From NCBI GenBank assembly GCA_001914235.1, contig MQUF01000003.1:448225-512224 (forward strand): 64,000 nucleotides of DNA, written 5' to 3'. This document shows positions 5,338-47,501 of this stretch, piece after piece. Source of the stretch: Desulfobulbaceae bacterium DB1 (lineage in GTDB: Bacteria > Desulfobacterota > Desulfobulbia > Desulfobulbales > SURF-16). Below the pieces are notes generated by a model. It was not told where the DNA came from, did not search any database, and saw nothing but the letters and a program-made list of their open reading frames with translations. Each line of letters starts with the position of its first letter. The stretch's first letter is position 1. The position numbers and the translations under genes were made by a program.

Positions 5338-6183
5338 GTAACTCCTTTGGGTTAAAAAATGATGCGCCGGGATTGTTCCCGAAAAGGTGCACCTTGTCAC
5401 GCGGCAGTCTCTGCCGCGTTAATCTGTTTATTATTTATTTAATCAGGATTTTCAGTCGGTTGTGGGAAAAAGATGAAAAGTGCCAGACAACTTCAGGGAG
5501 GATTTCAATATCCTCGGTGAGGAATGCTTCGGACTTCTCCGTGAATGTTTTTTAGCCTGACGCTCATTTTTCAACCCGGTCCGGGTCGTTTGCCCCGGAT
5601 ACAGGGTGCTTGTTGCCATGAGCCGCCTGTCGCGAATCCCGTCATTCAGTGTTGCACCGGCGTTGTGGCCAACGGTACGTTTTACCATTCCTGCAAAACC
5701 AAAACATTTTGACTGCTTGGCAAAATAATCGATGTATTTCGGCGATTTATCAACACGCGACAAGGGATGCGAAGAATGATTCCAGCTGGGGTCTCGATCA
5801 TATAGTGAACCTGGTTCGGGCATACAGCCGCAATATGCTCTCCTTTGTAAGTGGTCGGCAGACGACTTTAACGATAGCAAACCAGGCAAATGCAACAACG
5901 TGGCGGGAATATAACGTGAAAGGAATATGCTTTTACTCCAAATATTATTTCCAGCATTTATAACTCGATAATTTCATAATGGCAACAGAATAATTTTACA
6001 TAATAATTTCACGAACACGTTTCCCGCCCTCAAAAGGCTCGCCTTGCCGGCTCATGAAATATATCTGGCTTTTTCCTGGATTTCATATTAAATAAAGAGG
6101 TTCGTCTTTATGGGAGTGGTTTCCAGAATGCCGCCCAGGCGGAGACTATTATTTAACGTACTCACTGAAAGGAGAATCTCCCT

Positions 6184-37265: not shown

Positions 37266-38864
37266 ATGAAAAAGAAACTGAGCAGCTATATTGCCGGCGC
37301 GTTTATCATCAATGTTTTCGCCATCCTCAGTGTAGGCGGCATCTGTACCTTGATGGTCAAAGACATGGTGACGAATATCGCCCGTCTGGAAAAGGAAAGC
37401 GGGAATGTCTCCACAATTTACCGACTGAACAACAAAATCCAGCATGCCGTCTTCATGGTTCACAATTCCATCGTTGATTATGATGAAACAGCGGAAAATG
37501 AAATCATGGCCACCATGGCCAAGGCGGAAAAAGACCTGCTCGACTATATGGGAAGTGAAAAGAGCGGGCACAATCTTCATACGCAGGAGGAATTCATTCT
37601 CCTGGAGAAACTTCACGACAATATCAGCGGCATCAAAACCCTTCTGCCCGAAATTTACCGCAACCTCACCCTTGCCGAGCCCCAGGATGAGAACGGGTTC
37701 AAACTGCTGGAAAAATATGCCTTTCACGCCCGGAACCTGACCCAGTCCATCAACGATGTTCATTTCAAAGTCGTGTCAGGCCTGGTCAAGGAATCTTACA
37801 ACAAGATGTTTTTCATCCTGCTGCTCTACCTGACCTGTTCGGTGGTGGGGATCCTCGCCTCCTGCGTCGGCTATGTGGTGTTAAGCCGTCATACGATCAA
37901 GCCGATCATCAATCTTGCCACCGCGACCCGCAGAATTTCCGGCGGCGATCTCGGTATCCGGGTTGCAACCGATTCCGAAACCGAAATCGGCACTCTGTAT
38001 CAATCATTCAATGCAATGACGGAAAAGCTGCAGGAACATCAGCGAAAACGGGAAGATTTCAACCGGATGCTGGAAAAACTGGTAAAGGAAAGGACCCGGG
38101 AACTGCTCGAATCAAATGAGTCTTTGTCCCGTACCCAGTCGGAACTGGTCAGGATGGAAAAAATCGCCACCCTGGGCCAGATCGCCACCTCGGTCAACCA
38201 CGAAATCAAAACACCGCTGAATGTCCTGTACATGAATCTGCAACTGCTCATTCGCAAGATAAACCAGTGCCCCATGGAAGGGGACTCGCTGAAACAGGGC
38301 ATGCTCGGTCTGACCGAGATCATCAATAATGAAATCGGCAGAATCAATGAAATAATTGAAGAATTCGTCAAATATGCCCGTTTCCCCGCCCCGAAAATCA
38401 AAGAAAGCGATATCAACAAAATACTTACCGACATCGCGGAGATGGTCACCCAGAATGCACGGGAGGCGGACATCAGCATCGATCTTCAGCTTGATGACAA
38501 TTTACAGACCTGCCCGGTTGATGCTAAGATGATGATTCAGGCTCTGCTCAATCTCTGCATGAATGCCATCCAGGCCATGCCCTACGGCGGATCCTTGAAA
38601 ATTGAAAGCAAAAAACTGGAATCATGCACGAAAATATCGATCATCGATACCGGACAGGGCATTGAAGCGGCCGACCTTGACCGCATCTTCGATCCCTTTT
38701 TCACCAAAAAAGACGGAGGCCTGGGTTTTGGGCTTGCAATTGTCCAGCGAATCATCGAAGATCACCGTGGTTCCATTTCCTGCCGGAGCGAGGTGGAAAA
38801 AGGGACCGAATTCACCATCATTCTTCCGACAACGACAAAGGCAATCTGTCAGGATATCATATAA
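37266..38864 (+). CDS. Sensor histidine kinase (periplasmic sensor, HAMP, HisKA, HATPase_c)
   Basis: Two TM segments flank a ~150-aa loop, followed by a HAMP domain. H-box SVNHEIKTPLN, and N/G boxes (LNLCMNAIQA, DTGQGI, GGLGFGL). Confidence 0.9.
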   Translation: MKKKLSSYIAGAFIINVFAILSVGGICTLMVKDMVTNIARLEKESGNVSTIYRLNNKIQHAVFMVHNSIVDYDETAENEIMATMAKAEKDLLDYMGSEKSGHNLHTQEEFILLEKLHDNISGIKTLLPEIYRNLTLAEPQDENGFKLLEKYAFHARNLTQSINDVHFKVVSGLVKESYNKMFFILLLYLTCSVVGILASCVGYVVLSRHTIKPIINLATATRRISGGDLGIRVATDSETEIGTLYQSFNAMTEKLQEHQRKREDFNRMLEKLVKERTRELLESNESLSRTQSELVRMEKIATLGQIATSVNHEIKTPLNVLYMNLQLLIRKINQCPMEGDSLKQGMLGLTEIINNEIGRINEIIEEFVKYARFPAPKIKESDINKILTDIAEMVTQNAREADISIDLQLDDNLQTCPVDAKMMIQALLNLCMNAIQAMPYGGSLKIESKKLESCTKISIIDTGQGIEAADLDRIFDPFFTKKDGGLGFGLAIVQRIIEDHRGSISCRSEVEKGTEFTIILPTTTKAICQDII

Positions 38865-38873
38865 GGTGCACCC

Positions 38874-40214
38874 ATGCCGCAGACCACCATACTGATTGTC
38901 GATGATGACAAAATGACACGGCAGACGCTTTCCCTGGCTCTTGAGGATCATTATCAGACCATGACGGCCAAGGACGGGAAAACCGCCCTGGAAACGCTCA
39001 GGGAGCAGGAAATCGACATCGTCCTTTCCGATCTTTTCATGCCGGGGATGAACGGCATTGAGCTGCTTGAGCAAATCAATCAGTTGCCGGAAAAGCCGCC
39101 GGTCATTTTCATAACCGGCCAGGGCACGGTCGAAACCGCCGTGCAGGCCATGAAACTGGGCGCCTATGACTATGTCACCAAGCCGATCAACATCGACCGC
39201 CTGTGTCTTATCATCGAAAAAACCCTGGAAAATAAACGACTCAAGGAAGAAAACATCCTGCTGAAGGAAAAGATAAAGGAAAACTATCCCGACCTTTCCC
39301 TTATCGGCGATTCCCCGGTCATGCAAAAGGTCAAGGCACTGGCCCATCAGGTGGCCTCCACCACCGCAACCGTGCTCATTGAAGGGGAAAGCGGCACCGG
39401 CAAGGAACTGATCACCAACATCATCCACTACAACAGCCCGGTGGCCCACGGTCCGTTCATCAAAGTCAACTGCGCGGCCTTTGCCGAAGGCGTGCTGGAA
39501 TCGGAACTTTTCGGTCATGAAAAAGGTGCCTTTACCGGCGCCGTGGCCGCGAAGAAAGGCCGTTTCGAGCTGGCCGACAACGGCACCCTTTTTCTCGATG
39601 AAATCGGAGAAATGCCCCAGTCGATCCAGGTCAAGCTGCTGCGCTTTCTCCAGGAGCAGACCTTTGAGCGGGTCGGCGGCACAAAAACCCTGAAGGTGCA
39701 AGTGCGGATTATCTCCGCCACCAACAGAAACCTGACGGAAATGATCAAGGAAGGGACCTTCCGGGAAGACCTTTATTACCGCCTCCGGGTGGTCAAGATC
39801 GAGATGCCCCCTTTACGGGACAGACGGGAAGACATTCCTCCCCTGGTGGACAATTTTCTGAAGAAATTCTCCCACCGGCACGGCAAACCGATTCAGCGGG
39901 TGTCGAACGAGGTTATGAACCTGATCAAACAGTATAACTGGCCGGGCAACATTCGGGAATTGATGAACTGTATAGAGAGCTCGGTGGTCATGGCGCGGGG
40001 CGACACGCTGACCATCGATTCCATACCGGAATACCTGACCTATACCGAAAATGGTTCGGAACCGGAAAGCAAGGAAGGGGCGCTGCATGAAATGGAGCGT
40101 CAGCTTATCACCGATGTGCTCAACAAAACGGCAGGCGACAAGGTGCGGGCGGCGAAAATTCTCGGCATCGGCCTGCGCACCCTGTACCGCAAACTGGACA
40201 GATGGGAGATGTGA
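38874..40214 (+). CDS. Sigma54-dependent response regulator (NtrC family enhancer-binding protein)
   Basis: Receiver domain (ILIVDDD..DIVLSDLFMPGMNG). AAA+ domain with GESGTGKE and the GAFTGA loop. C-terminal Fis-type HTH (AAKILGIGLRTLYRKL). Confidence 0.95.
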   Translation: MPQTTILIVDDDKMTRQTLSLALEDHYQTMTAKDGKTALETLREQEIDIVLSDLFMPGMNGIELLEQINQLPEKPPVIFITGQGTVETAVQAMKLGAYDYVTKPINIDRLCLIIEKTLENKRLKEENILLKEKIKENYPDLSLIGDSPVMQKVKALAHQVASTTATVLIEGESGTGKELITNIIHYNSPVAHGPFIKVNCAAFAEGVLESELFGHEKGAFTGAVAAKKGRFELADNGTLFLDEIGEMPQSIQVKLLRFLQEQTFERVGGTKTLKVQVRIISATNRNLTEMIKEGTFREDLYYRLRVVKIEMPPLRDRREDIPPLVDNFLKKFSHRHGKPIQRVSNEVMNLIKQYNWPGNIRELMNCIESSVVMARGDTLTIDSIPEYLTYTENGSEPESKEGALHEMERQLITDVLNKTAGDKVRAAKILGIGLRTLYRKLDRWEM

Positions 40215-40251: not shown

Positions 40252-42141
40252 TCATCCATTTTTCTCCGCCGGGGAAAACAACGCGTGCGCGGCCTTGATT
40301 GCGGCGCAAGCCGGCCCGTCGTCAGGCGCGAGGGCGGAATCCCCGGCTATCCTCTTTTTCGAGGTGCATTCATAGACGATCTCCATTTCCTCCCGATCCA
40401 GGGTCTCATTAAGCAGCAGCATATCGGCCAGATAAATGACAAAGTCCTTTTCCGCTGTTAATATTTCCCGCGCCTCCTGGTAGCAGGATTCAACCAGTCT
40501 TTTCACCTCCCGGTCTATCCGCTGTCCCGTTTCTTCACTGTAGGCGGACCTGTTCAGCTGTTCCCCGAGAAAGCCCCCATCGTTCTGCAGATAGGCCAGC
40601 GGTCCGATTGCCTCACTCATGCCCCACTGGCACACCATCTTGGTGGCAAGACTGATGGCCTGACGGAAATCGTCCTCCGCACCGGTGGTCTGCTGTGACA
40701 GGCAAATCTCCTCCGCCACACGACCGCCCATGAGAATCTTGATGCGGCTGAGCAGGTATTCCCTTGAATAGGCGTGGCGATCAGTCAACGGCAATTGCTG
40801 GGTATGACCAAGCGCCTTTCCCCTGGGGATGATGGTAATCTTATGGACAGGATCGGTTTCCGGCAGGTGGCGGGCGAGCACCGCATGGCCTGATTCATGG
40901 TAGGCCATGGTCTTGCGATCCTTCTCGCTGATGACAAGCCCTTTTCGTTCAACCCCCATCAGGATCCGGTCCTTGGCCTTTTCCATATGCTCCGGCCGGA
41001 TGGCGCTGTCGCCCATGCGTCCGGCAATAAGAGCCGCTTCGTTCATCAGGCTTGCAAGCTCGGCGCCGGTGAATCCCGGGGTGCTGCGCGCCACATTTTC
41101 AAGATCCATGTTCTCGGCAAGCGCCAGTTTCTGGGCATAAACCCGGAGAATCTGCAGCCTGCCTTTGACATCGGGTGGGAGAATACTGATCTGCCGGTCA
41201 AAACGGCCCGGCCGCAGCAGGGCCGGATCAAGGATATCCGGCCGGTTGGTGGCGGCGAGAATAATGATCGTCTCTTCAGTGGAAAAACCATCCATTTCAA
41301 CCAGCAGGGCGTTGAGCGTCTGGCCGCGCTCATCCTGCCCGCCGGTCATGCTGCCCGCACCTCGGTGCCCTCCCACCGCATCGATCTCATCAATAAAAAC
41401 AATGCAGGGCGTATTTTTTTTCGCCTCCTTGAAGAGATCCCGCACCCTGGAGGCGCCGACGCCGACAAACATCTCGACAAAATCCGAACCGCTGATGGAA
41501 AAAAAGGGGACGCCGGATTCTCCGGCGATGGCGCGGGCCAGCAACGTCTTGCCTGTGCCCGGCGGGCCCTGAAACAGGATGCCGCGCGGGATGACCGCCC
41601 CGAGTTTGCTGTATTTTTTGGGCCGCTGAAGAAAATCAATCACCTCCAGCAATTCCTCCTTGGCCTCCGGTACCCCGGCGACATCACGAAACGTCACCTG
41701 TTTATACTTTTTCTGGGGAGTAAAATGGGCAAGCTTCTCCCTGCCGAAATCCGCCTCGTTTTCCCCGGTCCCATGATTGCGCAGCAGGGAAAACCAGACA
41801 ATGAGAATAAGCATCATCGGCACGGCGAGTTCGGCAACCTGCCACAGCATTGCCGCCTTTTTCTCCGCCGGCAGAACAACAACATTCTTGGCAAGCAGCC
41901 TGGGCAAGAGGGAAGGGACATCCGGGGCAAACGAGGAAAACTCGCGGCCAAATGTATCGGTAAGGGAAATTTGCCCCTGATCAAGGCGGACCTCGGCTAT
42001 TTCGCCTCTTTCCAGGGTCTCAAGGAATTCGTTGTAACTGATTGGCGGAAGACGGTTTTCAATAGTCCAGAAGACGGCAACGATCCCGCCGACGACAATC
42101 AAGGCCACAACGGCAAACAACGTACGAATAAAAAGGGTCAA
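40252..42141 (-). CDS. ftsH: ATP-dependent zinc metalloprotease FtsH
   Basis: GPPGTGKT Walker A, the SRH region and HESGHA zinc site. The track ORF uses a TTG start with GGAG upstream. Confidence 0.93.
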
Positions 42142-42297
42142 CTCGGCAGACTCCGTTAAGGTGGATTGACGGTCACGACATCATCGACACAAAAATATAC
42201 TATATAATGGCAACGTATTGCTTGCAAAAGTTATTCCGTAAATCTCCGCCCGCCGAACAGCCCAAACAAGGGCATCCAGCCCTTTCCGGAATCTCCC

Positions 42298-42334
42298 TTT
42301 TGTCAAAATGACAAAACAGCATGCCATTTTGACA
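42298..42334. promoter_or_regulatory. Candidate enhancer (UAS): overlapping dyads TTTTGTCA-AAA-TGACAAAA and TGTCAAAAT-N16-ATTTTGACA
   Basis: A perfect 8-3-8 palindrome at 42298-42316. A further inverted 9-mer lies at 42326-42334. The centre is about 85 nt upstream of the sigma54-type promoter. Confidence 0.45.
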
Positions 42335-42388
42335 ACAAAAAAGACCGCCATTTCTCACAACATGTCGGAACAACACAAAAAATACCTT

Positions 42389-42404
42389 TGGCACGATAAT
42401 GGCA
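42389..42404 (+). promoter_or_regulatory. Candidate sigma54 (-24/-12) promoter
   Basis: TGGCACGATAATGGCA has a perfect -24 TGGCAC and correct GG-N10-GC spacing. The -12 element is TGGCA rather than TTGCA. It lies about 72 nt upstream of ATG 42477. Confidence 0.55.
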
Positions 42405-42476
42405 ATAAAACACAAGCAAGAGACACAACAAACAAATAATCCAAAACAGAAAGCATCAGCACCATGGAGGAAGCAA

Positions 42477-42710
42477 ATGAAAGCAACGAACCCCGAAGCC
42501 AAGGCCCAGGTAAAAAAACGCTCCACCGTTTCAAGTTCGGAAAACATCCAGGCCAAGGTTGAAGTTTCCAAGGGCGTTGTCATTGCGCTGGGCACAGCTC
42601 CGGCGCTGATCGGCATCTGGGCGGCCGCCTGTTTTGTCGGAGGTCTCGTTGCAAGCGGCGGTCCCATCGGCATGGTGAAAAGCTGGTTTTCGGCAATAAG
42701 CGGCATGTAA
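42477..42710 (+). CDS. Small (77-aa) C-terminally membrane-anchored protein, paralogue 1
   Basis: GGAGGAAGCAA precedes the ATG. A polar N-terminus is followed by ALIGIWAAACFVGGLVASG..WFSAISGM. Confidence 0.6.
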   Translation: MKATNPEAKAQVKKRSTVSSSENIQAKVEVSKGVVIALGTAPALIGIWAAACFVGGLVASGGPIGMVKSWFSAISGM

Positions 42711-42771
42711 GGATCCTTAAGCAATTTATTCCGAATGTAATCGACGACAACTGATGCAACGGAGGTGCCCC

Positions 42772-42996
42772 ATGAAAGAAGCAACATTGACAAAAAAACA
42801 AAACAAGGCACGGACAGGTGAACATATTCAGGCACAGACGGGTCTTGACACGTTTGCCACAGGCACCATCTCCGTCATGGGCGGCATTTCCGCCATCATC
42901 GGCATCTGGGCTGCAGCCTGCTTCATCGGCGGTCTTCTCAGCAGCGGCCCGGTTGAATTGGCTTACGGATGGTTCAGGGCGATAACCGGCCTGTAA
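42772..42996 (+). CDS. Small (74-aa) C-terminally membrane-anchored protein, paralogue 2
   Basis: GGAGGTGCCCC precedes the ATG. AIIGIWAAACFIGGLLSSG..WFRAITGL shares an almost identical core with the preceding gene. Confidence 0.6.
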   Translation: MKEATLTKKQNKARTGEHIQAQTGLDTFATGTISVMGGISAIIGIWAAACFIGGLLSSGPVELAYGWFRAITGL

Positions 42997-43163
42997 AACC
43001 CGCCCCGAGAGTGAGCATGCTGCACAGACAAACAATCCCTCCCCCTGAGTCCCGCCAACGAATGGACAAGAAAAGCACGCGGCAGAGCCGCGTGCTTTTC
43101 CCTGTTTGCGACGCAAATCACCTTCGTCTCAGCCGCCACTGTTGAGCCGAGGAAACCAAAGAA

Positions 43164-44627
43164 ATGAGCAAATCGTCTCCCAGCTTCATGAAAGCGGCGG
43201 TCAATCGAATTTCCCGCAGCAAACTTTCCGTTATCGGCGCGGTTCTCCTCATCTTCGTCAGCCCGATTCTCAGCCTCTCCGTTTTTCTCGACATTCAGGG
43301 CATCGTCAATAATCCCTATTTCGGCTTTCTTATTTATCTTGTTCTCGGACCGCTGTTTCTTTTAGGCATTATCCTGCTTTTTATCGGCATCATTACCTCC
43401 AGGGGCAAGGAGGACATCGGCCTCTTCACCTTTGAATACATCGAAGAACAACTCGCCCGTCCCGGCCGTTACAGCCGTATCCGGCGGCATCTTTACTTCA
43501 GCGTCACCCTCACCCTGGTGACCCTGTTCCTGGTCGCCCTTGTTTCCTATACCGGCTTTCACTATACGGAATCAAATGCATTCTGCGGCCAGTTCTGCCA
43601 TACGGTCATGGAGCCGGCTTTCACCTCGCACTCCAATTCCCCGCACTCTCGGATTTCCTGCGTCAATTGCCATATGGGCAAAGGTTCCCGGTGGATGACC
43701 AAAACCAAGTTCTCCGGTGTCAAGCAGCTTTTTGCCGTCATGTTCGACACCTATCACCGCCCCATCCGTCAGCCCATCGACACCCTGCGCCCGACACGGG
43801 CTACCTGTGAGGAATGTCACCGTCCAGACATGTTTCACGGCGACAAACTCTATATCAAGGACCGTTTTTTACCTGACAAAGACAACACCCACGTCCAGAC
43901 GGCGCTGCTTATGCGGATAGGATCGGGCGGCTACCTCGGCAGAAAAGCCCACGGTATCCACTGGCATGTTTCCGAGGACAACCAGGTTTTCTACAAATAC
44001 AGCGATCTGCATCAGGAGGAAATCGCCCAGGTCTGGCTGCAGAACGGAAACAAGAAAACCATTTACAGCAAAACCGCCTTGCAGCAGCAGGTACCGGCAA
44101 CCCTGTTGAGTGGCACTGTCCGGAAAATGGACTGCATGGACTGCCATAACCGGCCCACCCACGTTTTTCTCAGCGCGGAAGAGGCATTGGACGAAAAAAT
44201 TCTCATGGGGGTTATTCCCCGCACCATCCCCTTTATCAAGAAAAACGGGGTTGAAATCGTCAGCCGGCACTATGATTCGGTGGAACAGGCACTGGAAGCC
44301 ATTTCACAAGATCTGTTCCAATGGTACGAAAAGAATTATCCGGATTTCACCTCAAGCAAAAAACATCTGCTTGACAAGGCGGTCGCTGGAATCCAGCAGG
44401 CCTACCGGGAAAACGTCTTTCCCGATATGGAGGTGGGCTGGAATACCTATGACAATTTTATCGGCCACAAGGACGGAAACGGCTGTTTCCGTTGTCACAA
44501 GGGAGAGCACGTCAGTGAAGAGGGCAAGGTGATCAGCCATGATTGCGACAGTTGCCATGTGATTCTGGCGGAAAACGAACCCCAGCCCGATGTTCTGCGC
44601 ATTCTCAAGGAAGAAGCCGCCAAGTAA
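43164..44627 (+). CDS. Membrane-anchored multihaem c-type cytochrome (NapC/NirT-like N-terminal module; 5 CXXCH plus 1 CX3CH)
   Basis: N-terminal TM segments. Haem sites are CGQFCH (CX3CH), CVNCH, CEECH, CMDCH, CFRCH and CDSCH. Confidence 0.85.
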   Translation: MSKSSPSFMKAAVNRISRSKLSVIGAVLLIFVSPILSLSVFLDIQGIVNNPYFGFLIYLVLGPLFLLGIILLFIGIITSRGKEDIGLFTFEYIEEQLARPGRYSRIRRHLYFSVTLTLVTLFLVALVSYTGFHYTESNAFCGQFCHTVMEPAFTSHSNSPHSRISCVNCHMGKGSRWMTKTKFSGVKQLFAVMFDTYHRPIRQPIDTLRPTRATCEECHRPDMFHGDKLYIKDRFLPDKDNTHVQTALLMRIGSGGYLGRKAHGIHWHVSEDNQVFYKYSDLHQEEIAQVWLQNGNKKTIYSKTALQQQVPATLLSGTVRKMDCMDCHNRPTHVFLSAEEALDEKILMGVIPRTIPFIKKNGVEIVSRHYDSVEQALEAISQDLFQWYEKNYPDFTSSKKHLLDKAVAGIQQAYRENVFPDMEVGWNTYDNFIGHKDGNGCFRCHKGEHVSEEGKVISHDCDSCHVILAENEPQPDVLRILKEEAAK

Positions 44628-44681: not shown

Positions 44682-46124
44682 ATGAAAGATGATGAGCCAA
44701 ATAACGACCAGGAAAACGACTATCCAAAAAATTATGACCACGAGGGAGCCTTTGACCGCCTGCTGAAGGGGCTATGGCGCTCACCCCTGGGCGTTTTCGG
44801 TGTGGCGCTGACCACTATCAGCATCACCCTGATGATGATCGGCACCATCATCGACATGACCGGCCTGATCGACAACCCATACGCATCCCTGGTGACATAC
44901 ACCATTCTGCCGGTGGGCATGCTGATAGGCCTTGCCCTGATCCCCCTTGCCGCTTTCCTGCGCAGACGGAAATGGCATAAATACGGTGTCGACCGCGACC
45001 ATCTGCAGCTCAACCTGAGTAACCCCAAACACCGTCTGGCCCTGATCGGCTTCATCGTTCTTTCCGTGACCAACGTGGCTATTCTCGCGGTCATCGGTTA
45101 TGAAGGCTATCATTTCACCGATTCGTCCTATTTCTGCGGTGTCGTCTGCCACCAGGTGATGGAACCGGAATATGTGGCCTATAAGCGTTCCCCCCACTCC
45201 AGGGTGGCCTGCGTCGAATGTCACATCGGACCGGGAGCGGAATGGTACGCCCGCGCCAAGCTTTCCGGATTGCGCCAGGTGGCGGCCGTTATGCGCAATA
45301 CCTACAGCCGGCCCATTCCCGCCCCGGTCCATGAGCTGCGTCCGGCCAGGGATACCTGCGAACAGTGCCACTGGCCGGATAAATTTCACGGCAAAAGGAT
45401 AAAAAGATTTGTTTCCTTCAGCAACAATGACCAAACAAATCCGGAAATCACCGAAGTTGCCCTGCATATCGGCGGCCACAACCCCGAAACGAACGTCTTT
45501 GAAGGAATCCACTGGCATGTCAGCCATGAGGTGGAAGTAAGCTATCTGGCGGCGGACGAAAAACGCACGCAAATCGCCAAGGTCAGGGTGAAACGACCGG
45601 ACGGGACCGCGGATGAATTTATCAAGGGCGACATTGAAGTCCCGGCAACCGAGGAAGAAAACTGGCGGGTAATGGACTGCATCGACTGCCATAACCGCCC
45701 CACCCACATTTACAATATGCCGGAAGAAAGGGTTGATTTCGGTCTGCTCAGTAAAAAAATCAACCCTGAAATCCCCGGCATCCGCGAGGACAGCCTCAAG
45801 GTAATCACCAAGGAGTATGCATCCCGCGAGGAGGCAAAGGCTTCCATGACCAACGACCTGATTTCCCTGCAAAAACAACGGGATGCCGGGATGGCGGAAA
45901 CAAACAAAAATGATCTGCTCAAGGCCGGCGATTTCCTGCTGGAAGCATACCTCGGCAACGTCTGGCCGGAAATGAAGGTTGCCTGGGGTACCTATCGCGA
46001 TCATCTCGGCCACCAATGGGCTGATGACGGATACGGCTGCTGGCGCTGCCACGACGAAGAGCACGTCAACAGCGCAGGGGAAACCATTTCCCAGGATTGC
46101 TCCATCTGCCATGATGAACCCTGA
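44682..46124 (+). CDS. Membrane-anchored multihaem c-type cytochrome, paralogue of the preceding gene
   Basis: Same architecture and motif order: CGVVCH (CX3CH), CVECH, CEQCH, CIDCH, CWRCH, CSICH. Shared blocks include SPHSR..C.ECH.G, MDC.DCHNRPTH and GC.RCH. Confidence 0.85.
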   Translation: MKDDEPNNDQENDYPKNYDHEGAFDRLLKGLWRSPLGVFGVALTTISITLMMIGTIIDMTGLIDNPYASLVTYTILPVGMLIGLALIPLAAFLRRRKWHKYGVDRDHLQLNLSNPKHRLALIGFIVLSVTNVAILAVIGYEGYHFTDSSYFCGVVCHQVMEPEYVAYKRSPHSRVACVECHIGPGAEWYARAKLSGLRQVAAVMRNTYSRPIPAPVHELRPARDTCEQCHWPDKFHGKRIKRFVSFSNNDQTNPEITEVALHIGGHNPETNVFEGIHWHVSHEVEVSYLAADEKRTQIAKVRVKRPDGTADEFIKGDIEVPATEEENWRVMDCIDCHNRPTHIYNMPEERVDFGLLSKKINPEIPGIREDSLKVITKEYASREEAKASMTNDLISLQKQRDAGMAETNKNDLLKAGDFLLEAYLGNVWPEMKVAWGTYRDHLGHQWADDGYGCWRCHDEEHVNSAGETISQDCSICHDEP

Positions 46125-46326: not shown

Positions 46327-46394
46327 TCGGCCCAGGCCGGCAAAACCCAACCCTTTTCGTGACGCCAGTGCACTCAGAAACAGACGCAAATCAC

Positions 46395-47501
46395 ATGAAT
46401 GGGCGCAGACGCGCCTGGCTGCTGCAACTTTACCGGGAACACCGGCAGATCAGCCTGCTGCACCGGCTGCATCTTTCGACGCCGATCATTGAAATCAGCG
46501 CGGCCTCGACATACTGGGGAAGCTGGCAGTCGGCGGGCGGCGCCATCCGGATCTCTTCCCGGCTCATCGAACTCCACACCTGGGACGTGGTGATCAATGT
46601 CCTCAAACACGAGATGGCCCATCAGGCGGTAAGCGAGCTTTTCCACAGCCGGGAAGGCCACGGCGACCTTTTTGCCAGGGCCTGCGACATGCTGGGAGTC
46701 CCGGACGGTTTCAGGGAAGCCGGCGGCGATCTGCCCCGTTCCCTGCCGACCATCCACGAAAAAGCACAAAAGAGTCCGCAACACGCCCTGCTGCTGAAAA
46801 TAGAAAAAATCCTGGCCCTGGCCCGCTCAAGCAATGAACATGAAGCGCAGCTCGCCATGGAAAAGGCCAACCAGCTCATCACCCGCTACAACCTTGCCCG
46901 GGTCACCACGGAAAATGACACCGGTTACGACTGCATCATCATCAATCACAAGAAGAAACGGATCGAAAATTACCAGCGGAGAATCTGCGCCGTCTTGAGC
47001 CGCCATTTCTTTGTCCGTATCGTGCTGGCCGATCTTTATGATCCGGATCTCTGCTGCAGCCACAAAACCATCGAAATCCTGGGCGCCCGGGAAAACGTGC
47101 TGACCGCCGAATACGTCTATCATTTTCTTCTTTCCCGCATGGAGTCCTTCTGGGAAGAGTTCCGGCGCCGCAACCAAACCGGCGGCAACAGGAAACGATC
47201 CTACTGCCTGGGACTGCTGGATGGATTTGACGCGAAACTTACGGCCGGGGAGCAGGAAAACGCCGTTACTCCAAAGGCAGCCGCCGGTCAAAACATTTCC
47301 GCCCTGGTCTGCGAAGCCGACAGAGGGCTGAGCCTTTTCATCCGCAGGCGCCATCCCCGCCTGGCGCGCAGGAGCCATGCCGGGGCCGGCGTTTCCCGCC
47401 GGGAGTATGAAGCCGGCAGGCAGGACGGTGACAAACTGGTGCTGCACAAGGTGATGGAAAACCATGACGGCAACCGGGGCAAAATGCTGCCTTGTCGGTA
47501 A
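46395..47501 (+). CDS. SprT-like Zn-metalloprotease domain fused to a DUF2786-like domain
   Basis: Contains HEMAH. The later segment LLLKIEKILALARSSNEHEAQLAMEKANQLITRYNL is typical of DUF2786. Confidence 0.7.
   Translation: MNGRRRAWLLQLYREHRQISLLHRLHLSTPIIEISAASTYWGSWQSAGGAIRISSRLIELHTWDVVINVLKHEMAHQAVSELFHSREGHGDLFARACDMLGVPDGFREAGGDLPRSLPTIHEKAQKSPQHALLLKIEKILALARSSNEHEAQLAMEKANQLITRYNLARVTTENDTGYDCIIINHKKKRIENYQRRICAVLSRHFFVRIVLADLYDPDLCCSHKTIEILGARENVLTAEYVYHFLLSRMESFWEEFRRRNQTGGNRKRSYCLGLLDGFDAKLTAGEQENAVTPKAAAGQNISALVCEADRGLSLFIRRRHPRLARRSHAGAGVSRREYEAGRQDGDKLVLHKVMENHDGNRGKMLPCR

Follow-up and report, generated by a model that had tools for sequence, protein, structure and literature searches.

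A predicted sigma-54 promoter with tandem upstream dyads ahead of two small membrane-protein genes in Desulfobulbaceae bacterium DB1

The intergenic segment at positions 42298-42404 of a 64,000-nt stretch of DNA from Desulfobulbaceae bacterium DB1 (this whole stretch is referred to here as the window) raises the question of whether it carries a sigma-54 promoter with an upstream enhancer and, if so, which activator would act there and which genes would respond. Our analysis makes it very likely that the segment is a sigma-54 promoter equipped with an enhancer for an enhancer-binding protein (EBP), and quite likely that it controls a sigma-54 unit in which the regulator of a neighbouring two-component system activates two small-protein genes. 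The features on which these readings draw are listed with their coordinates in Table 1.

The promoter element, TGGCACGATAATGGCA, has the GG of its -24 box at 42390-91 and the GC of its -12 box at 42402-03 with exactly 10 nt between them, and it agrees with TGGCACG-N4-TTGCW at 15 of the 16 consensus positions, the sole mismatch being a G in place of T at -14. The original prediction had described a perfect -24 box, GG-N10-GC spacing and one mismatch in the -12 box, and this description is borne out at 42389-42404. The -14 position is G or A in every Desulfobulbia instance that we recovered, which departs from TTGCA and makes the apparent mismatch a trait of the family. The element occupies a 335-bp gap (42142-42476) between a divergent ftsH paralog and the two small-protein genes, and it faces the next gene; with the C at 42403 set as -12, the predicted start falls at about 42415, which would give a leader of 62 nt up to the ATG at 42477. 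No ORF with an RpoN box was found in the 64-kb window, and the presence there of an EBP that bears GAFTGA implies that the genome encodes RpoN. Another one-mismatch match to the sigma-54 consensus, GGGCACCTCCGTTGCA at 42755-42770 on the (-) strand, was judged to be a chance occurrence, as it lies antisense between the two small genes; the T of TGGCAC is also missing from it, and it overlaps the small gene 2 ribosome-binding site read in reverse complement.

Upstream of the promoter, the perfect palindrome claimed in the original prediction was found as described (TTTTGTCA-AAA-TGACAAAA, 42298-42316). The string of the further inverted 9-mer is likewise present (ATTTTGACA at 42327-35, with TGTCAAAAT at 42301-09), but the gap between the 9-mers is 17 nt and not 16 nt, and the whole is better described as two copies of one 13-bp dyad, TGYCAAAATGRCA, than as a palindrome with an extra 9-mer. 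Specifically, site A, contained in the extended palindrome, is a perfect TGTCA-AAA-TGACA, and site B is TGCCA-TTT-TGACA with one mismatch; site B reads as the reverse complement of TGTCAAAATGGCA, a sequence that differs from the first dyad copy at one position. The centres of the two dyads are 21 bp apart, i.e., two helical turns, which places both on one face of the DNA. The alignments of related loci revealed a third conserved block centred near -50, the usual place of an IHF site or an intrinsic bend, and a role as a bending or IHF-like site is possible. This block is degenerate in the window and matches the IHF consensus YAANNNNTTGATW only with two to three mismatches, a weak match on which we rejected a strong IHF site. 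The locus alignments contained no further conserved upstream dyad that could act as an enhancer, and no dyad within two mismatches was detected upstream of the kinase gene, where it might have served autoregulation. The sequence TGACAAAATGACA, located inside the regulator gene (38906-38918), was taken as a chance match, being a direct repeat rather than a dyad and encoding D-K-M-T.

Table 1. Features in and around the predicted sigma-54 unit (window positions)
Feature	Position	Strand	Basis or remark
Sensor histidine kinase	37266..38864	+	Pfam HAMP, HisKA, HATPase_c; two TM segments by eye
NtrC-family sigma-54-dependent response regulator	38874..40214	+	Pfam REC, AAA+ Sigma54_activat, AAA lid, HTH_8
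FtsH paralog (AAA + peptidase M41)	40252..42141	-	Pfam; divergent from sigma-54 unit
Sigma-70-like ftsH promoter TTGCAA-17-TATAGT	42199..42228	-	Consensus match only
Enhancer site A (predicted), TGTCAAAATGACA	42301..42313	.	Perfect dyad, centre about -108
Enhancer site B (predicted), TGCCATTTTGACA	42322..42334	.	One-mismatch dyad, centre about -87
Third conserved block, consensus AAYATNYTGAAATTAC	42358..42374	.	Centred near -50; from alignments; role inferred
Sigma-54 promoter (predicted), TGGCACGATAATGGCA	42389-42404	+	Predicted start about 42415
Ribosome-binding site GGAGGA of first small gene	42466..42471	+	Sequence; invariant in intergenic alignment A1
Small protein 1, 77 aa	42477..42710	+	First gene of predicted sigma-54 unit
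Small protein 2, 74 aa	42772..42996	+	Paralog of small protein 1, 44% identity
GC-rich hairpin AAAAGCACGCGGC-AGA-GCCGCGTGCTTTT then CCCTGTTT	43071..43099	+	RNA fold and alignment
Membrane-anchored multihaem c-type cytochrome, ~480 aa	43164..44627	+	NrfH/NapC-like N-terminal part; 6 CxxCH by eye
Second multihaem cytochrome	44682..46124	+	Paralog, ~35% identical to first

Motif counts in the window were compared with expectation. The window holds two matches to the sigma-54 consensus with at most one mismatch (3.08 expected from shuffles), one match to the family-specific pattern TGGCAY-N5-TNGCW (0.76 expected) and four perfect 8-3-8 palindromes (1.35 expected). Since single-motif counts were at chance level, we dropped counting motifs in the window and used conservation instead. 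The composite arrangement, that is, two TGYCAWWWTGRCA sites 21 bp apart with a promoter 52-54 nt further on, is expected 1.7e-13 times per 64 kb, and the TGYCAWWWTGRCA pattern has only two matches in the 64 kb, namely sites A and B. Another of the perfect 8-3-8 palindromes, CGCGGCAG-TCT-CTGCCGCG at 5400-5418 of the window, is followed by a T-rich stretch and looks like an ordinary intrinsic terminator.

For a phylogenetic footprint, we retrieved 10 syntenic loci by homology to the small protein and aligned their intergenic regions (alignment A1); because these loci were found by protein similarity, they were not selected by the DNA motif. Small protein 1, which is 100% identical to a protein of the DB1 MAG, has only nine other close homologs among 5.8 billion proteins, and the contigs that carry homologs (L001-L010) show the same gene order wherever the contig is long enough. 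Across the 10 loci, the mean pairwise identity was 0.90 for site A, 0.89 for site B, 0.97 for the -24 box, 0.89 for the -12 box and 0.93 for the ribosome-binding site. In comparison, it was 0.39 for the 8-nt spacer between the dyads, 0.48 for the 5-nt promoter spacer, 0.54 for the interval between enhancer and promoter, 0.49 for the leader and 0.44 for the upstream flank. The 21-bp spacing of the dyads is free of gaps in all 10 of these homology-derived loci, and little or no variation affects TGGCAC in the -24 box or GCA in the -12 box. This footprint supports the layout put forward in the original prediction, a putative sigma-54 promoter with an upstream palindromic enhancer, and we regard conservation in related loci as the decisive evidence for the predicted promoter and dyads.

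The survey was extended by a genome scan for TGYCAWAATGRCA-N8-TGYCAWWWTGRCA across 185,579 species, with one genome each, which returned 47 loci against about 0.07 expected (an estimate that assumes uniform base composition). When the scan loci were pooled with L001-L010 and the window, the set contained 30 distinct instances with TGGCAY-N5-TNGCW downstream of site B. From site B to the beginning of the promoter there are 52-54 nt in 29 of these 30 and 65 nt in the remaining one, a Nitrospirota locus. A gene of the small-protein family lies directly downstream in 26 instances, beginning about 24-95 nt past the promoter. The exceptions are L026 and L033 (both Nitrospirota), which have other genes downstream; L047, the contig of which ends 151 nt past the promoter at an apparent small-protein N-terminus; and L027, where no recognisable small gene was seen after the promoter. 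In the two Nitrospirota loci, the tandem dyads are followed by the predicted sigma-54 promoters TGGCACGTCATTTGCA at 65 nt (L026, 3635-3750) and TGGCATCAAGATTGCT at 53 nt (L033, 4173-4275), and the fetched flanks contain neither a small-protein gene nor a regulator homolog. The association with the small proteins may be younger than the dyad-promoter module itself.

Tandem-dyad matches in Gemmatimonadota, Bacteroidota and other phyla outside Desulfobulbia were left out of this count since they come without the promoter. Several loci of Gemmatimonadota / Longimicrobiales (L013, L024, L035, L037, L050 and L052) carry CTGCCAAAATGGCAG arrays of two to four copies, which have a periodicity of about 21-22 bp, lie in GC-rich intergenic DNA and have no sigma-54 promoter nearby; these arrays probably serve an unrelated regulator that uses a similar dyad. 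As for distant homologs of the small protein, no sigma-54 promoter was seen at L059 (E 1.4e-08), and L058 has the promoter and the -50 block on a contig that ends before the enhancer.

The candidate activator is encoded 2 kb from the promoter and dyads. This response regulator has strong Pfam matches (Sigma54_activat, 9.3e-73; Response_reg, 5.5e-32; HTH_8, 4e-13), a Walker A motif at residue 171, GAFTGA at residue 218, a Fis-type HTH and, within DLFMPG, a candidate phospho-acceptor Asp at residue 53. The histidine kinase (37266-38864), the gene of which is syntenic with the regulator gene in related loci, is presumed to be the sensor of the same two-component system. Of the 30 site-bearing loci, 18 also encode a homolog of this regulator, with 63-93% identity. 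The order in L025, L038 and L054 is regulator, enhancer, promoter, small gene and ftsH, all on the same strand, with the regulator gene ending just before the enhancer, and the linkage of regulator and site thus survives rearrangement in at least two different gene orders. On these grounds, we consider it fairly probable that the neighbouring regulator (38874-40214) is the activator of this promoter.

This linkage is frequent rather than universal, since in L029, L042 and L048, all of one clade, the 3-4 kb preceding the site contain no regulator gene. Additional copies of the enhancer-promoter-small gene arrangement, two in one genome (L015 and L040) and one in the closest relative of DB1 (L051), also have no regulator gene in the fetched flank. 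Both observations would suit a model in which the promoter and enhancer are real and the activator is another EBP encoded elsewhere, with the neighbour controlling a different target such as ftsH; the extra copies without a regulator are, at the same time, the pattern expected of a trans-acting regulator with a small regulon. The DNA-binding domain leaves room for such a model as well. The HTH segment AAK-LGIGLRTLYRK is invariant among the regulator orthologs, but similar HTH sequences are common across the whole NtrC family; the segment is therefore not distinctive, and we dropped its invariance as proof that regulator and site are paired. Nevertheless, an activator encoded elsewhere appears unlikely, as the regulator stays beside the site in at least two gene orders and ends directly before the enhancer in L025, L038 and L054, and no alternative EBP is consistently present (a second EBP, 41% identical, occurs in L045 only). 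The neighbouring regulator accordingly remains our candidate for the protein that would bind the dyads.

A different assignment of the dyads themselves would make them operators for a dimeric factor that is not an EBP, either repressing or activating the divergent sigma-70 promoter of ftsH or providing a second input to the sigma-54 promoter, with the enhancer located elsewhere or absent. No more than about 75 bp separates the dyads from the -35 element of the sigma-70-like ftsH promoter, at about the corresponding place of which alignment A1 shows conserved blocks, and the tandem TGCCAAAATGGCA arrays of Gemmatimonadota and other phyla, which lack a sigma-54 promoter, indicate that this type of dyad is not exclusive to EBPs. 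However, 29 of the 30 instances keep the same distance between dyads and promoter to within 2 nt, the dyads track the promoter and small gene rather than ftsH where ftsH has moved downstream or is missing (L025, L038, L054, L015, L040 and L051), and no other conserved enhancer-like dyad lies upstream, so that we hold the operator model to be very improbable and retain the dyads as the putative enhancer of the sigma-54 promoter. Finally, the idea that A/T-rich intergenic DNA merely happens to hold GG-N10-GC and a palindrome without any regulatory role agrees with single-motif counts that do not exceed shuffled expectation, but with 1.7e-13 composites expected in the window, a strong footprint and 30 independent instances of fixed geometry, it is extremely improbable and effectively already refuted by the conservation data.

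The genes downstream of the promoter encode proteins with no Pfam or NCBIfam family. Both small proteins have a basic N-terminus and one hydrophobic segment, which in small protein 1 carries an invariant W-A-x-A-C-F-x-G-G; the invariant residues are W48, A49, A51, C52, F53, G55, G56, P63, W70 and F71. A profile search (E<=1e-3) collected 267 clusters at 50% identity; among the best 150 of these 267, nearly all are 64-105 aa in length. The genes often occur in tandem pairs or triplets (L058). The FtsH paralog is always part of the cluster; in most loci its gene diverges from the small genes, and in L025, L038, L045 and L054 it comes immediately after the small gene, in the same orientation.

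The hairpin of 43071-43099 separates small gene 2 from the first cytochrome gene. It has a 13-bp stem followed by a T-rich stretch, and L001, L003, L006 and L008 have hairpins of differing sequence in the corresponding position. A simple terminator scan did not list this hairpin, and none of the known RNA families of the Rfam type was found in 41900-43300. The hairpin may end or attenuate the transcript before the cytochrome genes, and its position after small gene 2 means that the primary transcript may comprise just the two small genes; the extra loci contain small genes only, which fits such a transcript. The cytochrome genes may be reached by read-through or from a promoter of their own. 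The first cytochrome matches Pfam Cytochrom_NNT (1.2e-07), the NrfH structure PDB 2j7a (6.5e-07) and the NrfH model (1.3e-11, which is below the cut-off of that model). This gene neighbourhood suggests that the FtsH protease, the small membrane proteins and the cytochromes are functionally tied. A SprT-like / DUF2786 / DUF7168 gene (46359-47501, + strand) directly follows the cytochrome pair; this gene is also found after the pair in L001, L002, L003 and L006, and in those relatives it is followed by a small cupin gene.

Taken in sequence, the proposed mechanism would run as follows. Sigma-54 RNA polymerase would bind TGGCAC-N5-TGGCA (42389-42404) as a closed complex unable to open on its own, and dimers of the response regulator (38874-40214) would occupy both 13-bp dyads, centred near -108 and -87 relative to the start. 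Phosphorylation of the receiver domain by the partner kinase (37266-38864) would lead to assembly of the AAA+ ring, and the DNA between enhancer and promoter would loop, perhaps aided by the conserved A/T-rich block near -50, so that the GAFTGA loops could touch sigma-54 and ATP hydrolysis could open the promoter for a start near 42415. The resulting transcript would encode two paralogous membrane proteins of ~75 aa (42477-42996), and the hairpin at 43071-43099 would probably stop or attenuate it ahead of the NrfH-like cytochrome gene pair. From the sequence and its conservation we infer the dependence on sigma-54, which protein binds, control by phosphorylation, looping, where transcription starts and how far the operon extends.

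The predicted arrangement resembles several known systems. In the enteric glnAp2/NtrC system, strong NtrC dyads at about -140 and -108 precede a sigma-54 promoter, and NtrC is phosphorylated by a partner kinase. Our locus shares with it the -24/-12 promoter, the tandem dyads on one helix face about 100 bp upstream and a regulator of REC-AAA+-HTH architecture. It differs in the dyad (TGCACC-N5-GGTGCA at glnAp2, TGYCA-N3-TGRCA here), in the closer sites (-108 and -87) and in its unrelated targets. ZraSR-zraP and AtoSC of E. coli are also sigma-54 two-component systems, and ZraSR responds to envelope stress and drives a small periplasmic protein. As in ZraSR, a small envelope-protein gene near the regulator genes is the predicted target; unlike in ZraSR, no relation of the small proteins to ZraP was detectable, Pfam and NCBIfam both giving no match. 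The best NCBIfam matches are AtoS and ZraS for the kinase and AtoC for the regulator, with ZraR ranking fifth for the latter. For the regulator, the scores and cut-offs are 504.1 versus 714 for AtoC, 395.9 versus 760 for ZraR and 447.9 versus 558.6 bits for the NtrC model; for the kinase, they are 200.1 versus 646 for AtoS and 176.5 versus 479 for ZraS. Because all of these scores fall well below the equivalog cut-offs, we ruled out that the system is an ortholog of AtoSC, ZraSR or NtrBC.

The targets of E. coli PspF are small inner-membrane stress proteins. The pspA gene has a sigma-54 promoter with two upstream activating sequences (UAS) and an IHF site (ref 32 in PMC7175178). The two upstream sites, a possible bending site before the promoter and the small membrane-protein targets are shared with our locus, where the IHF-like block is weakly supported in comparison with the IHF site of pspA. 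PspF differs in that it lacks a receiver domain and is regulated through the binding of PspA, whereas the regulator here is a response regulator that could be phosphorylated. In the textbook arrangement of group-1 bEBPs, pairs of D domains bind tandem UAS dyads and IHF assists looping; phosphorylation relieves inhibition, GAFTGA contacts sigma-54 and ATP drives opening (PMC7175178). This scheme fits the locus as predicted from its sequence.

Desulfovibrio and DB1 belong to the same broad lineage of sulfur-cycling bacteria, which is rich in EBPs. [quoted passage not shown] We relied, as that study did, on a co-localised EBP gene, a conserved sigma-54 promoter and an upstream palindrome as the method. 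The order (Desulfobulbia), the motif and the target genes are different from those of the D. vulgaris EBP regulons, and the cytochromes here have only a possible place in the sigma-54 transcript because the hairpin intervenes. The closest solved full-length structure for the regulator is NtrC4 of Aquifex aeolicus (PDB 4l4u; E 2.4e-113 over residues 5-443), which comes from a distant organism and shares the three-domain architecture. A literature search on the DB1 MAG or on sigma-54 in Desulfobulbaceae returned nothing specific.

The predicted switch is of an ordinary textbook type, which leaves the understanding of sigma-54 control unchanged, and it is notable only for its uncharacterised targets. 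It flags a family of tiny, unannotated membrane proteins as a tightly regulated output linked to an FtsH paralog and membrane cytochromes, and this link offers a testable starting point for studying how these bacteria adapt their membrane or respiration. More tentatively, the module might mark an undescribed regulon widespread in Desulfobulbia, in which an orphan NtrC-type two-component system would switch on single-pass proteins of ~75 aa, genetically tied to a dedicated FtsH paralog and to the pair of NrfH-like hexahaem cytochromes of quinol-dehydrogenase type, in membrane or respiratory-chain stress or remodelling, although we would not yet favour this broader reading. If true, such a regulon would be analogous in logic to Psp or Zra and built from unrelated parts. 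The lineage is hard to grow and known mostly from metagenomes, and it includes relatives of Desulfurivibrio and of cable bacteria. For these organisms, the analysis yields a clean conserved motif, a pair of TGYCA-N3-TGRCA dyads spaced by 21 bp, and, for a two-component system not yet characterised, a probable regulator; the motif can be used to annotate the regulon in new genomes.

The half-sites of this motif produce one further pattern. In L003, L005, L007, L031 and others, TGGCACGGATTTTTGCC spans the right half of site A and the left half of site B. It resembles a sigma-54 promoter but has 11 nt, not 10, between GG and GC, and it is absent from the window, where site A ends in TGACA; TGGCACGGATTTTTGCC is probably a by-product of the TGGCA/TGCCA half-sites.
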